Positions 7,710 through 16,621 of a DNA stretch of 64,000 nt are shown here, one piece after another. The notes below the pieces were generated by a model. That model was not told the DNA's origin. It saw only the letters and a list, made by a program, of their open reading frames with translations, and searched no databases. The position numbers and the translations under genes are program-made. Every line of letters begins with the position of its first letter. The first letter of the stretch is position 1. The DNA is from an uncultured Candidatus Saccharibacteria bacterium (lineage in GTDB: Bacteria; Patescibacteriota; Minisyncoccia; Phycocordibacterales; UBA5272): assembly GCA_964369115.1 (NCBI GenBank), contig CAYJED010000001.1:3732-67731 (forward strand), given 5' to 3'.

Positions 7710-8888
7710 TCAAAAGCAAATGAGTCCGCCGGGAGAGGTTTTTTCAAAGATATCCTCGTTTCTTCCTCCTTCGGCGTAGATTGTCTGACTTCTATCAACA
7801 GACCCCCAGTTGTCATACAGGTTTTCCCAGGAAGCTGTCTTTCGGAGTACTTTCCTTTCATATATTTCTCTGGAAAGAAGAGCTTTTGCTAGAAGCTTGT
7901 TTGGTGTGTAGTACCAGGCCACTGCATCTTCACGAATTTTGTAGGTGACGAGCGGGTGGACATCAGATACGTGCACAGGGGGTGTTGTCGGAAAAAAGAA
8001 GATAGGTTGACCTCTTGGTAAAAGATAACAATCACCTTGTTGTGGTGCAACTGCCGGGACCGACTGATGGATTTTTGCATATTTTAGGTATCTGACCCCA
8101 TCTATTTCATTGAAGTAAAAGGTCCTGCCTTCTCCCACTCTGAAATCTTCAGGGAAAGGAAGCCATATTTTTGCCTCATTTTGTTTTTTGTCGAGATATA
8201 CCCAAAGTGTTGCACCGTCACGTCTTGACGGTTGAATGCCGAGAGCTTCAGTAATAGGCTCAGTGACAGACGTGACTGCACCCACTACTGCACTGCTCAC
8301 GTTTTCGGCTGTAAGCCACGGCTCTTTGGGTGCGACAGCTCGCCCGAAAAGTCCTGCAACAATGAGAATACACATCAACATTCTTTCAACACGGAAGTAC
8401 TCAAAGTAACCATTCTCATCTCTGAAAGTAAATAGCCATCTGAATATTCCTCCAAGCAACTTGTCTGCATTCATTGCAAGGAAGGATCCAGTGTTAAGGC
8501 GTACCTCTCTACGTACCTCTCTGTCATCATAGTGGAAACGATTTTCTTGACGTTCGCGTCTTCCTTCACGTGAACGTTCAGGAATCTCAAGTGACCAACC
8601 AAGGTTGAGTTCATACTCCCGAAGAAACGGTAAAATATTTGGAAGAAGATAGAGACCTGATCCGTAGGTTCTTCCAGTTTTTGTCTCAAAAAAAGCAAGG
8701 TGTGCTTCTTCATGAGATCCGACTTTCCACAAGAACATCATGAGTGTGCTTATAACGGCGCCAGTCATGAGATAGTTTTCCCATGTCGTATGGATAGCAA
8801 ACCAGTGTTTATACGTTTTTAGGTAGATGAACAGGAGGGGTGTCGTCAGTAAAAATGAGGTCAAGCGACCAATCGCAAAGACTGACAT
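7710..8888 (-). CDS. Membrane-anchored hypothetical protein with an HExxH motif; possible zinc metalloprotease
   Basis: N-terminal TM helices, with HEEAH located right after a helix. No wider family recognised. Confidence 0.5.
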   Translation of the reverse strand: MSVFAIGRLTSFLLTTPLLFIYLKTYKHWFAIHTTWENYLMTGAVISTLMMFLWKVGSHEEAHLAFFETKTGRTYGSGLYLLPNILPFLREYELNLGWSLEIPERSREGRRERQENRFHYDDREVRREVRLNTGSFLAMNADKLLGGIFRWLFTFRDENGYFEYFRVERMLMCILIVAGLFGRAVAPKEPWLTAENVSSAVVGAVTSVTEPITEALGIQPSRRDGATLWVYLDKKQNEAKIWLPFPEDFRVGEGRTFYFNEIDGVRYLKYAKIHQSVPAVAPQQGDCYLLPRGQPIFFFPTTPPVHVSDVHPLVTYKIREDAVAWYYTPNKLLAKALLSREIYERKVLRKTASWENLYDNWGSVDRSQTIYAEGGRNEDIFEKTSPGGLICF

Positions 8889-9870: not shown

Positions 9871-10115
9871 ATGTGCGGTGATGTGCACGAAACTGGAGTG
9901 GATTATTTTGTGATCACAAGTTACTAATTGCGCTAATCATAGCGTATGCGAGTTGCTCATAAGTACTCGCGACCTCGCCTTGCACATTTTAGAAAAGTTA
10001 GAAATATACACTTTTCTAAAACATTGCTGTAGTTGGCATAAAAGCACGAAACTGAAGCAGTTCAGTTTCTAAAATTAAAACTAAGCTTTCAGAACTTAGT
10101 TTTTATTTTATTTTG

Positions 10116-10188
10116 TGCCCCCAGTAGGGCTCGAACCTACGACCTGCGGATTAAGAGTCCGATGCTCTACCAGCTGAGCTATAGGGGC
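10116..10188 (-). tRNA. tRNA-Lys (anticodon CTT)
   Basis: Manual cloverleaf: acceptor GCCCCTA/TGGGGGC, anticodon loop CTCTTAA, T-arm GTAGG-TTCGAGC-CCTAC, 73 nt. CCA is not encoded. Confidence 0.85.
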
Positions 10189-10309
10189 ATATATAAATTT
10201 GACAGATAGTATTATACCATACTTACTAAAATATTTCTAGTCTCTTTATCATTTTTATGCTAGAATAGAAAAACTTTTAATTCTAAAGATTTTGAGAATT
10301 AAAACGAAT

Positions 10310-10386
10310 GACGCAGTGGCGAAGTGGCCTAACGCTGCGGTTTGCAAAACCGCCATTCGTGGGTTCGAATCCCACCTGCGTCTCCA
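10310..10386 (+). tRNA. tRNA-Cys (anticodon GCA)
   Basis: Acceptor GACGCAG/CTGCGTC, anticodon stem GCGGT/ACCGC with loop TTGCAAA, T-arm GTGGG-TTCGAAT-CCCAC. CCA is encoded. Confidence 0.85.
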
Positions 10387-10405
10387 GATATTGCAAAGCA
10401 ATATT

Positions 10406-10509
10406 GCGGGAGTATATGAACTACTTCATATACGTCGGGATTCGAATACGGGTCGGAAAATCATCTGCGACAAAGGAGCTGATTTTGTGACCGAATCCCG
10501 CCCAGGACG
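10406..10509 (+). ncRNA. Structured RNA element, copy 1. An 8-bp hairpin is followed by a 9-bp outer stem (CGGGATTCG/CGAATCCCG) that encloses a 7-bp inner hairpin (AAAATCA/TGATTTT).
   Basis: Nested perfect stems seen by eye. Homologous to the element at 10662..10752, with compensatory base changes in both stems. Confidence 0.4.
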
Positions 10510-10517
10510 TTTTTGAA

Positions 10518-10603
10518 GCCTGGGTGATGGAATGGTAGACATAAGACACTTAAAATGTCTGGCGCCAACGCGCGTGCGGGTTCGAGTCCCGCCCTGGGCA
10601 CCA
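10518..10603 (+). tRNA. tRNA-Leu (anticodon TAA)
   Basis: Acceptor GCCTGGG/CCTGGGC, anticodon loop CTTAAAA, long variable arm, T-arm GCGGG-TTCGAGT-CCCGC. CCA is encoded. Confidence 0.88.
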
Positions 10604-10606
10604 AAA

Positions 10607-10651
10607 TAATAAATACCTTTTCTGTAATCAGAATGGGTATTTATTATTTTG
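10607..10651 (+). terminator. Intrinsic terminator after tRNA-Leu
   Basis: 10-bp stem AATAAATACC/GGTATTTATT followed by ATTTTG. Confidence 0.6.
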
Positions 10652-10661
10652 CGAGCATTTA

Positions 10662-10752
10662 GCGCAAGTAAACTGCTTTACTTGCGCTGGGACTCGAATA
10701 GGGTTCGTGAAACTACTTCGAGCAAAGCGGGGTAGTTTTGTGAACGAGTCCC
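10662..10752 (+). ncRNA. Structured RNA element, copy 2, in the 5' leader of the yjdF-family gene. Candidate yjdF-class riboswitch.
   Basis: 11-bp hairpin, then outer stem GGGACTCG/CGAGTCCC enclosing inner hairpin AAACTAC/GTAGTTT. The unpaired segments (AATAGGGTTCGTG, GTGAA, loop GAGCAAAGCGG) are conserved with copy 1. Confidence 0.45.
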
Positions 10753-10813
10753 GCTCTAGACAAGCATTTGTAGTAAATAAACTACTTTACTTTGGTTATG
10801 ATAGACTTTTTAT

Positions 10814-11422
10814 ATGAATTTCTTAAAAACATATTTTCCACATTATTTACTAGCTATATATGCGATTTGGTGTATCTTTTTTAGCGTCAACCCTTACTCT
10901 CGAGATGTGTGGTACGCAGAAATGATACCTATCTTGAGTATTCTTGCTGTGCTAGTTGTTCTATATATAAAAGGTATCCGCTTTTCAAATACAGCTTACG
11001 CACTTATGAGTATTCTTTTGTTTTGGCATACATATGGAGCGTACTACACCTTCGAACGAGCACCTTTTGAGTGGTTTAATACTATGTTTGGTTTCGAAAG
11101 AAATATGTTTGATAGAGTTGGCCATTTTACCGTAGGATTTTATGCATATCCAATTTTTGAATATGTTATAAAAACAAAAAAAGTTTCTTCAAAAATGATG
11201 GCGTTTTTATTTTCAGTATTTTGTATTGCTACAGTTGCGATGGTATATGAGCTTATTGAGTGGGGGTATGCTGTTAAAGAAGGGGGAGATGCTGGATTGG
11301 CATTTCTTGGATCACAAGGAGATATTTGGGATGCTCAGAAAGATATGCTGATGGATACTCTTGGTGGTATTTTTGCTACATTGTTGGCGTGGATGACAAT
11401 TAAGAAGACAGATAAAAAATAA
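10814..11422 (+). CDS. yjdF: YjdF/DUF2238 family inner membrane protein
   Basis: Motif string AEMIP...GIRFS...RVGHF...YELIEW...FLGSQGDIWDAQKDM matches my recollection of E. coli YjdF. Multi-pass membrane protein, 202 aa. Confidence 0.72.
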   Translation: MNFLKTYFPHYLLAIYAIWCIFFSVNPYSRDVWYAEMIPILSILAVLVVLYIKGIRFSNTAYALMSILLFWHTYGAYYTFERAPFEWFNTMFGFERNMFDRVGHFTVGFYAYPIFEYVIKTKKVSSKMMAFLFSVFCIATVAMVYELIEWGYAVKEGGDAGLAFLGSQGDIWDAQKDMLMDTLGGIFATLLAWMTIKKTDKK

Positions 11423-13412: not shown

Positions 13413-14036
13413 TTAAATAAAAAGTTTAGCTTGTTTATATTTTCTTTCTAAAAAAATTGTACTATTTTCGTAAGATTTTTTTAGTAAAATTATACTATCT
13501 TTTTTGCCGTAAGTGAGAACATGCCAACTCTTTTCTTTTTGTGAGTATATCCAGCCACCTTGTATCGTCGACTCTTTTTTTATTTCCGAATGTATCCATT
13601 CTAAGAACGCTTTACTTGCTGAAGCTAATCTTATACGTAGCTGAGGGTGGTTGCTTTCTCTGTGGTAAAAAATATCAATATTACCATCGCCATCAATGCA
13701 CCCTCTAAGAAAGTGAAAAAAATATTTTTTTGGAATTTTAACTTTTTGTATTGTTTTAGATTTAGCTGGAGAAATTCCAAGTTCTAATAAAAATGTATAA
13801 AAGTTTTTATCTCCTATTTGTAAAACATAATACATTTTTCCTGTATTAGAATTTCTTTCTCCAATCATACAAGTAAGAAATAGGGATGTCTTTATTTTCA
13901 GGAGCAGCTCTTCATCCTTTGATGTGATCACTATATGTCTTCCGTCTATAGAAAGATTTCCATCGGTGGCAATAATCCCAATAATATAGGCAAGTTCAGA
14001 GGACCAGACTGTTGAAACTTTTTTCTTTTGTTTCAT
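13413..14036 (-). CDS. LAGLIDADG-family homing endonuclease, free-standing
   Basis: Two LAGLIDADG-type motifs (YIIGIIATDGNL and FLRGCIDGDGNI). Not embedded in an intron or intein within this window. Confidence 0.75.
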   Translation of the reverse strand: MKQKKKVSTVWSSELAYIIGIIATDGNLSIDGRHIVITSKDEELLLKIKTSLFLTCMIGERNSNTGKMYYVLQIGDKNFYTFLLELGISPAKSKTIQKVKIPKKYFFHFLRGCIDGDGNIDIFYHRESNHPQLRIRLASASKAFLEWIHSEIKKESTIQGGWIYSQKEKSWHVLTYGKKDSIILLKKSYENSTIFLERKYKQAKLFI

Positions 14037-14121
14037 TTATTCTAGTGTAGCATACTAAGGCATATAGCATATACCAAATTAAAATATCAAAAATAGCTCA
14101 ATTAAGAGTTATTTTATAATG

Positions 14122-14203
14122 TGCCCAGGACTGGACTTGAACCAGCACGCTCGAAAGCATTAGTTCCTAAGACTAACGTGTCTACCAATTTCACCACCTG
14201 GGC
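14122..14203 (-). tRNA. tRNA-Leu (anticodon TAG)
   Basis: Acceptor GCCCAGG/CCTGGGC, anticodon loop CTTAGGA, long variable arm, T-arm GCTGG-TTCAAGT-CCAGT. Confidence 0.85.
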
Positions 14204-14353
14204 GTATATAGTTGTGTACAATTTTGAAAACTGTTTGCGAATTATAGCGTACTTTTTGCTTTTTTGCGAGCAGTGCTACAGTTTTTGGGCAAAAGAAAAA
14301 CCCCCGAAACGATTAAACGTTTGACAGGGGTTGTGCTTCATCTTGCGTGAAGC

Positions 14354-15553
14354 TTAGGCGGTTGCGGCCTTGTTGGCCGAAGCCTTGTAGGCCACCACCA
14401 GTTCGGCGAGCTCGGCACCATCGATGCCTGCGCTCTTGAGCGAGGCGATGTATTGCGGCAAGCCGGAGGTCGGTGCCTTGGGCTCGGCCGGTGCTTGCGC
14501 AGCCGGCACTTCGGTCCTGGGAGCCGTAGCAACGGTTTTCGGAGTCGGCCGATTGCCGCCACGGCCGAGGAAGCCGACATGCTGATGTTCGTGGATGCTG
14601 TGCACTTTGCGGGCGTCATGCAGACGTTTGCAGGCTGCCATCATCGCGTTCATCAGTTGCTGGCGCTCGAGTTCTTCGAGTCCGCCGCCGTTCAAGTACT
14701 TGAGAAGTTCACCGGCGGAAGCGATCATCTCACCCTGGCTCATCTTCTCTTCGTCGAAGAACTCGGGGAACTGACCTCGGCTGCACTTGAGGTAGGTGCC
14801 GTTCAGCGTCTTGGCGGCAAGCGGATGCTTGTTGCCGATGTGGCCGATGCCGACGACGATAGTCGAGTGACGGGTGTCATCGAACATGAACCCGAGCACG
14901 ATACCGTCCTCCATCGTTTTGCCGAAGCGAACCTCGACACGATTCTTGTCGCTCAGTTGCTCGAGCAACGAAACGTTGGCCGATGCGCGGCTCCAGGCGG
15001 TGGCCTCTTCACCGATGAACTTGAACTTCTCGCGTTCGCTGGAAACGAATGCCGAGAGGTTTCCGAGGTCTTCCTCGCTGAGCTGTTCCCGGATGTAGCT
15101 GATCATCAGCTGTTGCTTCTGACCAGCCTTGCCCGGGATGGTGCTCACGAAGTTGTTCTTCGCGACCTGCCAGAACATCACGAAGATGTTCTCGTTGGTG
15201 CGCACGTGAGGTGCGAACACCACCGCCGTCGAGCTGACCAAAATCAGCCGATCAGGCGCCAGGTACTCAAACTGGCTTTCGCCAGCAAAGTCCACGCGGA
15301 CACCCGTTCGGAGGGTGCCCTCGATGATCGCCTCGACCATTTCGGTCCAAGAAATCACCGGAACAGGGATGGCGAGGTTGTCGAGCTGATCGGAGATCGA
15401 TCCGCGGCTGCCGCGCCTTTCGCGACGATCCTTGGATTCTTCGGATTGACGTTGTCGTACTGCGATGAGCTTGGAAGTGCCGGGGCCGTTGGAGCCACTG
15501 TTCTTGCCAGCTTTCTTGTTGGCGCCGTTGGAAGCATTCTTGTTGGAGGCCAT
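14354..15553 (-). CDS. Hypothetical protein encoded in a high-GC island; likely of foreign origin
   Basis: About 400-aa ORF (MASNKNASNGANKK...) with protein-like composition and strong GC3 bias. The 398-aa ORF on the opposite strand looks like a GC-shadow ORF. Sharp GC transitions at about 14335 and 15610. Confidence 0.55.
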   Translation of the reverse strand: MASNKNASNGANKKAGKNSGSNGPGTSKLIAVRQRQSEESKDRRERRGSRGSISDQLDNLAIPVPVISWTEMVEAIIEGTLRTGVRVDFAGESQFEYLAPDRLILVSSTAVVFAPHVRTNENIFVMFWQVAKNNFVSTIPGKAGQKQQLMISYIREQLSEEDLGNLSAFVSSEREKFKFIGEEATAWSRASANVSLLEQLSDKNRVEVRFGKTMEDGIVLGFMFDDTRHSTIVVGIGHIGNKHPLAAKTLNGTYLKCSRGQFPEFFDEEKMSQGEMIASAGELLKYLNGGGLEELERQQLMNAMMAACKRLHDARKVHSIHEHQHVGFLGRGGNRPTPKTVATAPRTEVPAAQAPAEPKAPTSGLPQYIASLKSAGIDGAELAELVVAYKASANKAATA

Positions 15554-15781
15554 GATGTGGACCTTTCTGCGCAATGCGCTTTTTGGAAACAGAAACAGAA
15601 TGAACAAGCTTGTGTACCGGAGGTTATTTCCTCACAATCACATGTATAAGTATACACAATTTTACAGATTTGTCAAGTATTTTCTTGTAAGAAATATACA
15701 TTTTACCTTTATTTATAAGCTTTATTTGTCTATTTTTACCTTTTTACGTAGGATGGAAAGTGTTGTTCTTTATGAAATAAG

Positions 15782-16621
15782 GTGCCTACGATGAGTATGC
15801 CTGTTAATCTCTTTGTGGTACTTCACGGTGAATCGCTTGGTAATCTTGTGAATCGACAAGGTTCACAAGGTAATCCTGTCTTTCTTGAAACTCTTAAACA
15901 AACACATACTGCACATTGGCCACTTTCGAATAAAGGCCGAGAGCAAGCAGGGCTTACGGGTGTTTTTTTGAATGATTTATTTAACAGCGAGAATATCATT
16001 TTTGATCAAGCGTATGTTTCAGCTTATGCTCGAGCACTTGAAACTGCTGCTAGGCTTGAAATTGCGCGATGTGCTTGGCGTGTCGATTCGCGGATTGTTG
16101 AACGAAATTGGGGAGACTTAGACGGTCTTTCAGAAGAAGAAAGACAAGGTCGTTATAAGGATGTAATGAAGATGCGTCATACGGAGCCGTATTTTTGGAA
16201 TATTCCAAACGGTGAACCTTTTGATCGTTTTGTTGTGCGTATTCGTGACTTCGTTGATTCGTTGTACCGGGCAGGTGTGCAAAATGTGCTTGTTGTATGT
16301 CATGGTGAAGTGATGAAAGCACTTCGGGTGATACTTACTGGTATGACACCAGAAGAGTATTCTCTGATGGAGTTTTCGGATGACCCGCTTGTACGCATTC
16401 ATAACTGCCAAGTTGATCACTATACGCGTAATAATCCAAATCAAAGAGAAAAGGTAAAAACACTTTCCTGGCTTCGTGTGTATCGCCCGTCTGAAGAGCT
16501 GTACGATCACACTTCTTCGGTTGCTGTTGATTGGACACCTATCAAGCGTCGCACCTACGACAGTCACGAACTTTTCGTTATGTCAGGAGAGATGTCAAAA
16601 GATTTGAGAGATTACGTGTAA
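15782..16621 (+). CDS. Histidine phosphatase superfamily protein (phosphoglycerate mutase-like)
   Basis: N-terminal VVLHGES motif and VVCHGEVMKAL. Followed by hairpin terminator 16632..16670. Confidence 0.6.
   Translation: MPTMSMPVNLFVVLHGESLGNLVNRQGSQGNPVFLETLKQTHTAHWPLSNKGREQAGLTGVFLNDLFNSENIIFDQAYVSAYARALETAARLEIARCAWRVDSRIVERNWGDLDGLSEEERQGRYKDVMKMRHTEPYFWNIPNGEPFDRFVVRIRDFVDSLYRAGVQNVLVVCHGEVMKALRVILTGMTPEEYSLMEFSDDPLVRIHNCQVDHYTRNNPNQREKVKTLSWLRVYRPSEELYDHTSSVAVDWTPIKRRTYDSHELFVMSGEMSKDLRDYV

Follow-up and report, generated by a model that had tools for sequence, protein, structure and literature searches.

We found that the window (the whole 64,000-nt stretch of DNA analyzed here) contains two homologous folded elements, copy 1 (10406-10502) and copy 2 (10658-10755), which are apparently members of a previously uncatalogued family of ~100-nt structured RNA modules located in the 3′ trailers of tRNA genes. 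The family has ~100 relatives in Patescibacteria contigs, nearly all immediately downstream of a tRNA gene and in the same orientation, and its hosts belong to a clade of ultra-small Patescibacteria (Parcubacteria/Paceibacteria-like). Selection acts on the tRNA strand to maintain the element as a folded single strand, and its occurrence is linked to tRNA genes. Our best reading, to which we give slightly less than an even chance, is that it represents a cis-acting tRNA-trailer RNA able to capture or release the 3′ third of its tRNA. We found no described counterpart to an architecture in which each copy mirrors the 3′ third of the preceding tRNA in both antisense and sense. Rfam searches of the window, of eight "orphan" loci, and of representative family-1 and family-2 units returned only tRNAs, one rRNA start, and spurious miRNA-like matches to long hairpins, and we found no earlier description of the core sequence or of CPR tRNA-linked RNAs of this sort in literature text.

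Two folded elements flanking tRNA-Leu

The first-pass annotation had proposed that two homologous structured elements flank tRNA-Leu, and both were present where it had placed them. A covariance model (R1) built on 62 relatives scored each copy at 91.0 bits (E of 6e-19 for copy 1 and 5.9e-19 for copy 2), and the pattern GAATASGGKTCG-N25-55-GTGAMCRA occurred exactly twice in the 64 kb window and never in 100 shuffles. Each copy folds into a 5′ hairpin followed by a long arm, with energies of −40.4 kcal/mol (z −3.8) for copy 1 and −47.2 kcal/mol (z −5.6) for copy 2 that were equaled by none of 200 shuffles; the minus strands of both copies gave weaker folds. The copies align with 75% column identity and share the stems and conserved single-stranded blocks listed earlier. 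The compensatory substitutions between them are genuine as well. Even so, neither copy arose by recent duplication of the other; they represent two different subtypes, each of which recurs nearly unchanged in other genomes.

Copy 1 is partnered with tRNA-Cys(GCA) (10310-10386, plus strand; Rfam tRNA, 62 bits) and copy 2 with tRNA-Leu(TAA) (10518-10603, plus strand; 51.9 bits); both genes named in the annotation were recovered by ARAGORN and Rfam, and a native fold is predicted for both tRNAs. Copy 1 lies on the plus strand within the 131-nt spacer between the two tRNAs, where there is no strong terminator. The sequence 3′ of tRNA-Cys contains a short hairpin (ATATTGC-AAA-GCAATAT, 10388-10404, plus strand), which is a "short class" spacer without the long palindrome seen elsewhere; a mini-hairpin with a U run occupies the equivalent place in other tRNA-Cys, tRNA-Arg(tcg), and tRNA-Thr loci. 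Copy 1 then begins with GCGGGAG (10406-10412), a leftover of the closing or anti-acceptor strand, followed by hairpin A (10412-10433, loop CUAC). Its helix P1 pairs 10436-10444 with 10492-10500 and is followed by a bulge (10445-10450) and by the conserved GGUCG (10451-10455), which pairs with GUGACC (10487-10492). The subtype is marked by GAAUACGGGUCGG with tip UCUGCGACAAAGGAGC. The tail, CCCAGGACG, lies at 10501-10509 on the plus strand. The P1 3′ strand and tail read CGAATCCC followed by GCCCAGGAC, with the first 8 nt identical to positions 56-63 of tRNA-Cys and the remainder resembling the acceptor 3′ strand of tRNA-Leu(taa), GCCCTGGGCA. In locus L213, elements of the copy 1 subtype follow tRNA-Leu(taa).

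Between tRNA-Leu and copy 2, the sequence and a whole-region fold revealed an A-rich/U-rich palindrome that includes a G-UAAU-C capped hairpin (10604-10650, plus strand). Copy 2, which lies on the plus strand and is supported by the model, its fold, and a tail comparison, has hairpin A at 10662-10687 (loop CUGC), P1 pairing 10689-10696 with 10745-10752, the bulge AAUAGGG at 10697-10703, GUGAAC at 10740-10745, and a subtype tip of CUUCGAGCAAAGCGGGG. Its tail, GCTCTAGACA (10753-10762), repeats the acceptor 3′ strand of tRNA-Leu in a decayed form. The anti-acceptor segment described below is mostly lost in both window copies, while P1, the core, and hairpin A are still intact. The annotation had also suggested that the pair could be terminal repeats of an inserted tRNA-Leu module; this does not fit the arrangement, in which each copy belongs with its upstream tRNA.

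The sole further match of model R1 in the window was a solo 5′-hairpin remnant on the minus strand, located at 10034-10075 (21.6 bits, E 0.004). This truncated third copy lies 3′ of tRNA-Lys(CTT) (10115-10188, minus strand; ARAGORN; Rfam tRNA, 70.9 bits) and its terminator hairpin, and it retains only hairpin A (GAAACUGAA-CUGC-UUCAGUUUC) and GUG. A full element is present at the orthologous tRNA-Lys(ctt) in L008 and L009.

Layout and conservation of the family

Among the 91 matches with enough upstream DNA, 65 lay 20-58 nt past a tRNA on the same strand, nine were in tandem behind another element, six more had a tRNA within 400 nt, and 11 were found behind tRNA-3′-like remnants. Several relatives are sited between two tRNAs. 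At least 25 isoacceptor types are represented among the partner tRNAs, and 72 of the 109 tRNAs in family loci carry an element.

A complete unit starts with the tRNA and an A-rich/U-rich terminator-like palindrome, which is prolonged by a segment perfectly antisense to the acceptor 3′ strand. Next come hairpin A, which has 9 bp and a CUGC loop, and the trinucleotide CGU; the T-stem 3′ strand and T-loop are then repeated in antisense. After these, a variable arm separates the conserved GAAUAGGGGUCG from the conserved GUGACC, and the unit closes with a sense copy of tRNA positions 56-65. This sense tail is identical to the local tRNA from position 56 over either 7-15 nt or 19-40 nt; it runs through position 76 and beyond in about one-third of copies, and about two-thirds of copies are without its acceptor part. 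The anti-acceptor segment forms a more stable duplex with its own tRNA than with other tRNAs (−13.8 versus −7.9), and it was significant at 38 of 72 element-bearing tRNAs versus six of 37 others. It is missing in about half of the copies, both window copies included. Since copies of the acceptor strand, whether antisense or sense, are so often missing, no pairing scheme is universal except P1, P2, and hairpin A.

Evidence for selection on the fold came from covariation. RNAalifold on 62 members predicted 27 pairs, 20 of them with compensatory changes. With 95 members, in an alignment that was itself fitted to the covariance model, 95.3% of cells pair (73.5% in shuffles), changes on both sides were seen in 22 of 27 pairs, and the covariation score was 0.606 versus 0.202 when shuffled, a value reached by none of 500 shuffles and compared with at most 0.09 in slid controls. 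The claim in the first-pass annotation that these are selected RNA structures is thus borne out. In the consensus derived from 62 to 95 members, a single hairpin precedes a single long arm (P1-bulge-P2-P3), and a G.U pair in P2 is invariant (95/95 members).

The identity of the wobble pairs also bears on which strand is selected. Post-tRNA palindromes contained 1550 Watson-Crick pairs, 56 G.U pairs, and three C.A single mismatches; pairing of the acceptor 3′ strand gave 534, 38, and 4, respectively; and P1 had 36 G.U versus 21 A.C. In the 57 related units that were folded, the wobble pairs of the post-tRNA hairpins were biased toward the tRNA strand. For the anti-acceptor region we used fold-based counts, as an ungapped mismatch count is confounded by register. 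The large excess of G.U over C.A indicates an RNA on the tRNA strand. The structure is symmetrical and could be read from the minus strand, but the weaker folds of that strand and the asymmetry between G.U and C.A speak against it.

Palindromes equivalent to 10604-10650 averaged 28 bp in those 57 units. They combine a G+C-containing hairpin with a U run 3′ of it on the transcribed strand and are predicted to be intrinsic terminators; the window palindrome itself was not returned by a simple terminator consensus scan. A terminator-like hairpin and U run between most tRNAs and the element means that most transcripts may end before the element. A terminator right after the element is not a general feature, as it was found in 14 of 61 cases versus five of 61 controls. 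When 65 full tRNA-to-tail transcripts were folded, the native acceptor stem was predicted to be kept in only four, and the acceptor 3′ strand paired downstream in 45 and the T-stem 3′ strand in 42, in MFE predictions that leave out tRNA tertiary structure, co-transcriptional folding, and processing kinetics.

A proposed trailer RNA and competing explanations

If the element is a cis-acting trailer RNA, it would be co-transcribed with its tRNA, whether because the polymerase reads through the palindrome or because the element, as with copy 1, lies in an inter-tRNA spacer. Transcription is plausible because copy 1 sits in a spacer with no strong terminator and several relatives sit between two tRNAs. 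Acting in cis on its own tRNA precursor, the antisense half would capture the tRNA 3′ third so that the acceptor stem and T arm unfold, and the sense tail would compete for the anti-T strand through helix P1. The invariant bulge and P2 core beside P1 would be the likely docking site, for a protein or a ligand, that sets the balance. In this way the element could process tRNAs, control their quality, or regulate their output; read-through precursors, for instance, might be inactivated or be cut at the long duplex. Of the roles that the first-pass annotation had offered for copy 1, a processing or stability element of the tRNA transcript comes closest to the evidence. In a stronger version, which we consider quite unlikely, most tRNA genes would carry a built-in "anti-tRNA" switch whose antisense strand unfolds the acceptor and T arms unless a sensor core locks it onto the decoy. 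Were the core bound by a common protein or metabolite, one signal would set the supply of many tRNAs post-transcriptionally.

The main alternative, which we regard as somewhat unlikely, is that the elements are selfish, non-autonomous repeats that colonize tRNA 3′ flanks and that spread and are reshuffled by recombination or gene conversion between copies. The tRNA-matching segments, being inverted and direct repeats within 200 bp, would then be overwritten from the neighboring tRNA, and the conserved core would serve a putative propagation mechanism and not a host function. Much in the family resembles such repeats. It is multi-copy (at least five matches on one 775-kb contig and three in L119); its discrete subtypes are near-identical across genomes and freely recombined with hairpin-A types and tRNA identities; and tandem pairs, solo hairpin A, 3′ fragments (UUUGUGACC plus the P1 3′ strand), and chimeras, such as L187 versus L215, all occur. 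Copy 1 in the window is itself a chimera, combining the T part of tRNA-Cys with a tRNA-Leu-like acceptor part, two elements in L107 face each other with no tRNA, and a second family has the same front half as this one. Discrete subtypes, free combination, and tandem, truncated, and chimeric copies look more like recombining repeats than like a housekeeping RNA and count against a trailer RNA, as does the fact that genomes differ in the subtype found at a given tRNA.

The order of the parts argues against a selfish repeat. Segments taken from the local tRNA alternate with conserved ones (anti-acceptor, hairpin A, anti-T, core, T copy), an order that a single insertion cannot give, and the variable ends with a conserved interior are the opposite of a transposon; a MITE or transposon as such, for which conserved terminal inverted repeats plus a short duplication of the target site would be expected, was rejected on outer segments that vary per tRNA around a conserved interior. 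The elements have no associated transposase or integrase, and searches of 2.9 million viral contigs, PLSDB, and INPHARED found no copies: all 16 matches in a core-pattern scan of the viral contigs were chance occurrences in coding DNA without P1 or hairpin A, and blastn against plasmids and phages matched only the tRNA-Leu part. The excess of G.U over C.A reflects selection on the RNA strand beyond DNA homogenization, and full-scoring cores are kept in copies with decayed tails. It is also a possibility that the antisense and sense pair is a rewritable guide by which a protein-less repeat homes to tRNA genes.

Returning to a trailer RNA that acts on its own tRNA, a different RNA-level explanation, which we judge to be very unlikely, is a stand-alone tRNA-mimic small RNA that would be cut out by RNase P and RNase Z and would punctuate the transcript or act as a decoy. 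In such a mimic, the anti-acceptor segment would pair with the tail as an acceptor-like stem, with P1 taking the place of the T stem and hairpin A that of the remaining tRNA. The antisense strand is broken exactly at the acceptor/T-stem junction, like the 5′ strands of a real tRNA, and in copy 2 the GAGC 5′ of hairpin A pairs with the GCUC of the tail and not with the tRNA. Nine of 50 units have an intact anti-acceptor segment and a full tail, with pairing of −12.8 to −27.6 kcal/mol; P1 is found in every copy, and these nine are the only units in which a strong closing stem is possible. However, about two-thirds of copies have no acceptor part in the tail and nonetheless have intact cores, the anti-acceptor segment favors the real tRNA (mean −13.8) over the tail (−8.1) as its pairing partner, and ARAGORN and the Rfam tRNA model called only the five true tRNAs and never the elements.

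We consider it highly improbable that the elements are scars of integrase-mediated insertion, with the tail representing a displaced tRNA 3′ end (attR) and the element the leftover of an island or phage. The direct repeat of the tRNA 3′ end does begin in the T-loop, and it reaches the trailer and terminator in some loci (40 nt in L130 and L149; 32 nt in L144). The T-loop is a classic crossover sublocation for tRNA-targeting integrases, as Williams reportedly described in 2002. Yet merely ~150 nt separate the repeats, with no integrase or cargo; one conserved core is found at 25 different tRNAs; antisense tRNA copies are unnecessary for an attP; the repeat ends near position 65 in most copies, where the acceptor strand is not next; and the elements are absent from viral, phage, and plasmid collections.

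Finally, we see next to no chance that copy 2 is a yjdF-class (or other) riboswitch controlling the gene that follows it, with copy 1 a decayed duplicate, and membership of the elements in the yjdF class, as proposed in the first-pass annotation, is refuted. The gene itself was correctly named: 10814-11422 (plus strand) encodes a DUF2238 membrane protein (Pfam PF09997, E 1.5e-45), which is a neighbor outside the element, and no second Pfam match was seen at E ≤ 0.01, so DUF2992 was unmatched. DUF2238 is the family of Escherichia coli YjdF. Copy 2 ends 58 nt ahead of the start codon, and L020 and L027 also have an element directly upstream of a DUF2238 gene; this adjacency arises because the gene order tRNA-Leu(taa)-DUF2238 is conserved in one sub-clade. 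In a survey of 80 DUF2238 loci from 80 species genomes, where the annotation would have the element recur at the orthologues of relatives, 76 were without it. The four that had it are the closest Patescibacteria ones, where it lies beside tRNA genes; in L008 the clearest copy is on the other strand from the DUF2238 gene and ~1 kb upstream of it, and in L027 it is ~900 nt downstream of that gene. Copy 1 scores the same as copy 2, the genes downstream of 53 elements are diverse and form no functionally coherent set, and many elements precede tRNAs or nothing; what the element tracks is tRNA genes. Neither RF01764 nor any riboswitch family matched at the gathering score in the 64 kb window or at E ≤ 10 in 10200-10900 with permissive filters. 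The yjdF riboswitch is tied to Bacillus subtilis yjdF, a DUF2992 gene, in Firmicutes and folds as a four-stem junction (PMC4793209), and the association with DUF2238 that had been taken as its hallmark is therefore misplaced, since the motif belongs with DUF2992 (PMC4793209). The link was a confusion of names, as the riboswitch gene is DUF2992, the neighbor here is DUF2238, and only the gene name is common to both. Matching by gene name may misguide riboswitch calls.

Implications and comparison with known systems

Patescibacteria make up a large share of bacterial diversity, and few of their non-coding RNAs have been described; if our reading is correct, the elements would be a new structured RNA class that is abundant in them. 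The architecture suggests either RNA-only control or proof-reading of tRNA production, which would sit in genomes that have lost many protein factors, or a new tRNA-seeking repeat. The elements account for the repetitive look of tRNA flanks in these genomes and can seed rearrangements, as in the L187/L215 chimera.

REP/BIME, Correia, and RUP are intergenic repeat families with a fixed sequence at every site. Like them, the present family is multi-copy and hairpin-forming, lies after genes near terminators, occurs as fragments and in tandem, and mediates rearrangements; unlike them, it rewrites ~20 nt to mirror the neighboring tRNA and is confined to tRNA 3′ flanks. Plant mitochondrial t-elements and mascRNA (the MALAT1 3′ end) are partial tRNA look-alikes that lie within longer transcripts and borrow tRNA-processing enzymes. 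Intact copies of the element can likewise stack an acceptor-like stem on the T-stem-like P1. However, t-elements and mascRNA keep a T-loop and an acceptor stem and carry no antisense copy of a neighboring tRNA, whereas the element has a large conserved arm in place of the T-loop, is missing the acceptor 3′ strand in most copies, and mimics the tRNA directly upstream. With att sites in tRNA genes it shares the direct repeat of the tRNA 3′ end from the T-loop, but its repeats, ~150 nt apart, enclose a conserved structured core and antisense copies, with no recombinase.

The yjdF riboswitch (RF01764), a cis-acting bacterial RNA that binds azaaromatic compounds and turns on translation, also has a tRNA connection, and it shares a gene name with the gene neighboring the element here. 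Its aptamer is reportedly homologous to tRNA-Lys and folded like a tRNA (PMC9142559). The riboswitch is a four-stem junction with conserved junction nucleotides that lies upstream of DUF2992 genes, whereas the element is a hairpin with a long bulged arm that lies 3′ of tRNA genes and has no fixed downstream gene. In having two short guide-like segments around a hairpin, the element resembles the tigRNAs of TIGR-Tas and IS110 bridge RNAs. The spacers of tigRNAs are 9 nt long, lie in arrays of 36-nt units next to a Nop-domain gene, and base-pair to opposite strands of the DNA, and such split-guide RNA systems are found in parasitic bacteria (PMC12045711). Unlike in tigRNAs, both segments of the element are antisense to one strand of the adjacent tRNA, and its units are ~100 nt; this unit size and strand logic led us to reject a TIGR or bridge-RNA reading, and no Tas gene was noticed beside the elements. 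A group I intron origin was rejected as well: the introns in PMC13011429 sit at anticodon-loop position 35/36, the element is too small, and there was no Intron_gpI match. By inspection, the tips (CUGACGAG...GAGGAAG) look hammerhead-like but were rejected as hammerheads, having motif-flanking strands that pair together and A14 replaced, and the bulge was rejected as a K-turn, having no tandem G.A pairs past it.

The proposed trailer RNA has a formal likeness to the alternative pairing of attenuators or T-boxes (1:2 versus 2:3), since the middle antisense strand can pair with either the tRNA 3′ third or the sense tail and a conserved domain lies beside the deciding helix, a putative switch that we infer from sequence and MFE folding only. 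The element is not a T-box leader, as it has no T-box sequence, specifier, or Rfam match and its position 3′ of tRNA genes is wrong for one. Unlike attenuators and T-boxes, which lie in mRNA leaders, the element follows a tRNA gene, and it is the tRNA itself that would be regulated.

The elements of the window and the yjdF question

The first-pass annotation had called two homologous structured RNAs in the window and had proposed the second, which precedes a DUF2238 gene, as a candidate yjdF-class riboswitch. The pair itself is borne out: copy 1 (10406–10502, plus strand), which follows tRNA-Cys (10310–10386), and copy 2 (10658–10755, plus strand), which follows tRNA-Leu(taa) (10518–10603), align with 75% identity and have the stems and conserved blocks originally described. 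Both fold better than shuffled sequences (z-scores of −3.8 and −5.6, respectively) and better than their own reverse complements, and the core pattern common to both occurs twice in the 64-kb window and in 0 of 100 shuffles. The yjdF-riboswitch assignment is refuted. The gene downstream of copy 2 (10814–11422) does belong to DUF2238 (PF09997, E 1.5e-45), the family of Escherichia coli YjdF, an unrelated protein whose name matches that of the riboswitch-linked gene by coincidence. At gathering score, Rfam 15 returned five tRNAs and nothing else over the whole window; at E ≤ 10 with permissive filters, it returned no riboswitch family over 10200–10900, the additional matches being spurious and falling on an AU-rich hairpin. 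The yjdF riboswitch is a four-stem junction ahead of Bacillus subtilis yjdF, a DUF2992 gene (PMC4793209), whereas the gene adjoining copy 2 is DUF2238.

The element instead tracks tRNA genes. We scanned 80 DUF2238 loci from 80 species genomes with a covariance model of the element, and only four held it, all from the closest Patescibacteria (loci L008, L009, L020, and L027) and in every case beside tRNA genes. It had no fixed place with respect to the DUF2238 gene: in L008, the clearest copy lay on the opposite strand, ∼1 kb upstream, and in L027, it lay ∼900 nt downstream. ORFs 3′ of 53 elements were diverse and, among the matches listed, only two metagenomic loci had DUF2238 as the next gene, so its adjacency in the window reflects the conserved tRNA-Leu(taa)–DUF2238 gene order of one subclade. 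We are highly confident that this is a family of tRNA-linked structured elements with no relation to DUF2238.

In the four loci, the element directly follows a tRNA gene and its hairpin, and the 3′ tail of the element is a repeat of the tRNA 3′ end (Lys in L008 and L009, Leu-taa in L020, and Leu-tag in L027). Scanning metagenomes for the core pattern gave, among the matches listed, loci L103–L219, with the P1 helix of the long arm and the 5′ hairpin intact in at least ∼76 matches. Searching with R1, a covariance model built from 62 members, gave at least 99 matches at a cut-off of 50 bits, at least 91 of which have ≥160 nt of upstream DNA. Among the matches listed, 65 of these 91 lie behind a same-strand tRNA gene and start 20 to 58 nt from it, 9 stand in tandem behind another element, 6 are within 400 nt of a tRNA, and the 11 “orphans” are still preceded by a tRNA-3′-like remnant and a palindrome. 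At least 25 isoacceptors have the element, which is carried by 72 of the 109 tRNAs of the loci among the matches listed; it was absent from all five tRNA-Met(cat) genes in the loci examined.

In L217 (2002–2103 and 2295–2447), an element with a tRNA-Asp-type tail had no detected upstream tRNA and lies ∼190 nt ahead of the start of a 23S rRNA gene; Patescibacteria tRNA-Asp genes can be missed in detection owing to group I introns (PMC13011429). The window tRNA-Leu(tag) (14121–14203, minus strand) is without the element, and its L020 ortholog has an element-like match. A free-standing LAGLIDADG-type ORF (13413–14036, minus strand) lies 85 nt downstream of this tRNA, so classed from a weak precomputed Pfam LAGLIDADG_3 match on its orthologues in related contigs L001–L004. 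The segment at 14001–16000 has a G+C of 0.50 (∼0.38 elsewhere) and two very long overlapping ORFs on opposite strands (14354–15607, minus; 14453–15649, plus).

Anatomy, covariation, and strand

Read on the tRNA strand, a full unit begins with the tRNA and continues with an A-rich/U-rich palindrome about a G+C hairpin (28 bp on average), whose outer extension is a perfect complement of the acceptor 3′ strand, discriminator base, and trailer (CCCTGGGCACAAATAC...GTATTTGTGCCCAGGG in L103). There follow RAG and hairpin A, the 5′ hairpin (9 bp, CUGC loop, strongly covarying stems); CGU and a complement of the T-stem 3′ strand and T-loop, where the GAA of a conserved GAAUAG complements U54-U55-C56 of the tRNA; the invariant block GAAUAGGGGUCG; a variable arm, whose tip falls into at least six recurrent types; invariant GUGACC; and a sense copy of the tRNA beginning at C56, which pairs with the anti-T strand to form P1. 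The direct repeat of the tRNA is bimodal, either 7 to 15 nt (T-loop and T-stem only) or 19 to 40 nt, the latter class spanning the acceptor strand and at times reaching a second terminator. Pairing of the anti-acceptor strand is stronger with its own tRNA (−13.8 kcal/mol) than with other tRNAs (−7.9) or with the tail (−8.1). This strand belongs to the element and not to tRNA terminators generally: among the matches listed, it accompanies 38 of the 72 tRNAs that have an element and 6 of the 37 that have none; most of those six carry a second, related family.

G-UAAU-C or G-UACU-C caps recur in tRNA terminator hairpin loops (10619–10634 in the window) and at variable-arm tips (element subtypes 4 and 5, many loci). 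Short-class spacers have a AAGCGAAGCG mini-hairpin (GCGAAGC type) and a U run in place of the long palindrome (L164, L213, L212, L197, and L105, after tRNA-Cys, tRNA-Arg-tcg, and tRNA-Thr); the analogue in the window tRNA-Cys spacer is TTGCAAAGCAA.

The second family (L153 ∼700–900, L166, L194 ∼8500–8750, L119, L126, and L132) has the same front half, from the palindrome and anti-acceptor strand through the hairpin and CGU to the anti-T strand. It differs in having another, longer core (AACGAAAAACCGGUCUACGAA-hairpin-UUUUGUCG...GGGGUCG), and the loci inspected showed no sense tail. At L107 (770–965), an element like this one on the minus strand faces a first-family element on the plus strand across a palindrome, with no tRNA; the left arm runs T-loop/T-stem, hairpin, acceptor 3′ strand. 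Inverted contiguous copies of the tRNA 3′ half also lie beyond the terminator in L145, L008 (∼2260–2340), L161, L119, and L170, and by eye L145 has, downstream of tRNA-Lys-ttt, what looks like a complete tRNA-Lys(UUU)-like copy in convergent orientation to the real gene.

Copy 1 is of the GAAUACGGGUCGG subtype, found also behind tRNA-Leu(taa) in L213, with the same core in L150. Because its P1 3′ strand is identical to tRNA-Cys positions 56 to 63 and the acceptor strand of tRNA-Leu(taa) is resembled by the 9 nt that follow, it is a chimera, consistent with relocation and then partial conversion to the local tRNA. It sits in the 131-nt tRNA-Cys/tRNA-Leu spacer, preceded only by a weak mini-hairpin, and is almost certainly cotranscribed with both tRNAs. 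Copy 2, behind tRNA-Leu(taa), is of the UUCGAGCAAAGCG subtype, and its tail is an acceptor-strand copy with three mismatches. Neither copy retains the anti-acceptor complement (duplex energies of −4.6 and −4.0); in the predicted folds, both tRNAs keep the native acceptor stem and only tRNA-Leu the native T stem. A truncated third copy (10034–10075, minus strand), matched by R1 and also picked up as terminator-like by a simple scan, follows tRNA-Lys(ctt) (10115–10188, minus strand) and its terminator. It is a solo hairpin A plus GUG (GAAACUGAA-CUGC-UUCAGUUUC-GUG); in L008 and L009, the ortholog of this tRNA carries the element in full.

That the RNA structure is under selection, as first proposed, is supported by covariation. 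RNAalifold predicted 27 pairs from 62 members, with compensatory changes in 20. In a 95-member alignment, whose pairing and covariation figures reflect its being fitted to the model, 95.3% of cells pair (73.5% after column shuffling), 22 of 27 pairs have double changes, and the covariation score is 0.606 (0.202 for shuffles, with 0 of 500 reaching 0.606), falling to ≤0.09 when partners are slid by 1 to 3 columns. P2 (GGUCG/UGACC), a second helix of the long arm, is invariant, with a G·U pair in 95 of 95 members. Palindromes hold 56 G·U wobbles versus 3 C·A single mismatches, and pairing with the acceptor 3′ strand 38 versus 4. Because G is twice as frequent as C in the strand antisense to the acceptor, neutral decay is expected to favor C·A. 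The asymmetry indicates that pairing, including that of anti-acceptor and acceptor 3′ strands, is selected in RNA read in the tRNA direction, and by implication at least some transcripts would pass through the “terminator.”

Selfish repeat or trailer RNA

The main rival is a selfish, recombining repeat family. Tip and hairpin-A subtypes are discrete, near-identical across unrelated samples, and freely recombined; one tRNA has different subtypes among genomes (four at tRNA-Asp); tandem pairs are frequent, as are 3′ fragments and chimeras; and the L107 elements stand face to face with no tRNA. L187 (535–633) and L215 (1743–1841) are identical over 130 nt upstream and the 5′ two-thirds of the element and diverge at their 3′ ends after GUGACCGA, which looks like recombination between two element copies within the conserved core. 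The L215 3′ end is of tRNA-Trp type and has lost pairing with its own P1 5′ strand. Against a simple mobile element, however, the wobble asymmetry shows selection at the RNA level, the interior is conserved and the ends variable, no recombinase accompanies the element, and nothing similar to it was found in IMG/VR, INPHARED, or PLSDB. In addition, tRNA-derived and conserved segments alternate, a layout beyond any single insertion. The two views are not exclusive: a functional trailer RNA family whose spread and reshuffling came about through recombination among its copies would show every one of these features.

As to how such a trailer RNA might act, we folded 65 complete transcripts, from tRNA through tail. 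The native acceptor stem is predicted to be kept in only 4; the 3′ strand of the acceptor is predicted to be captured by the downstream antisense strand in 45 transcripts, and that of the T stem in 42. Because hairpin A breaks the antisense strand exactly at the acceptor/T-stem junction, as in the 5′ strands of real tRNA, this strand and the 3′ third of the tRNA would form a tRNA-like minihelix that shuts out the tRNA's own body. The sense tail would be an equivalent partner for the anti-T strand, via P1, the helix next to which the invariant bulge and P2 core lie. The most economical reading would be a three-segment competition in cis among tRNA, antisense, and tail, its bias set by whatever binds the core. 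Read-through precursors might be inactivated or cleaved at the long duplex; alternatively, the amount of emerging mature tRNA might be tuned. The evidence reaches as far as an RNA that is structured, lies on the tRNA strand, and matches its tRNA, and all further steps we infer; that the 3′ third of the tRNA is captured and released in cis is a tentative proposal, to which we give slightly less than even weight.

Comparison with described RNAs

The taxonomic range of the element is based on four named MAGs and unlabeled metagenome contigs. Because no Rfam 15 family matches it, and the full text of open-access papers and preprints held nothing relevant on the core sequence or on tRNA-linked RNAs of Patescibacteria/CPR, we consider the family to be undescribed, with no described counterpart to its architecture. 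Nearest in the literature are the group I introns of Patescibacteria tRNAs (PMC13011429), which lie in the anticodon loop and are a different thing from the element.
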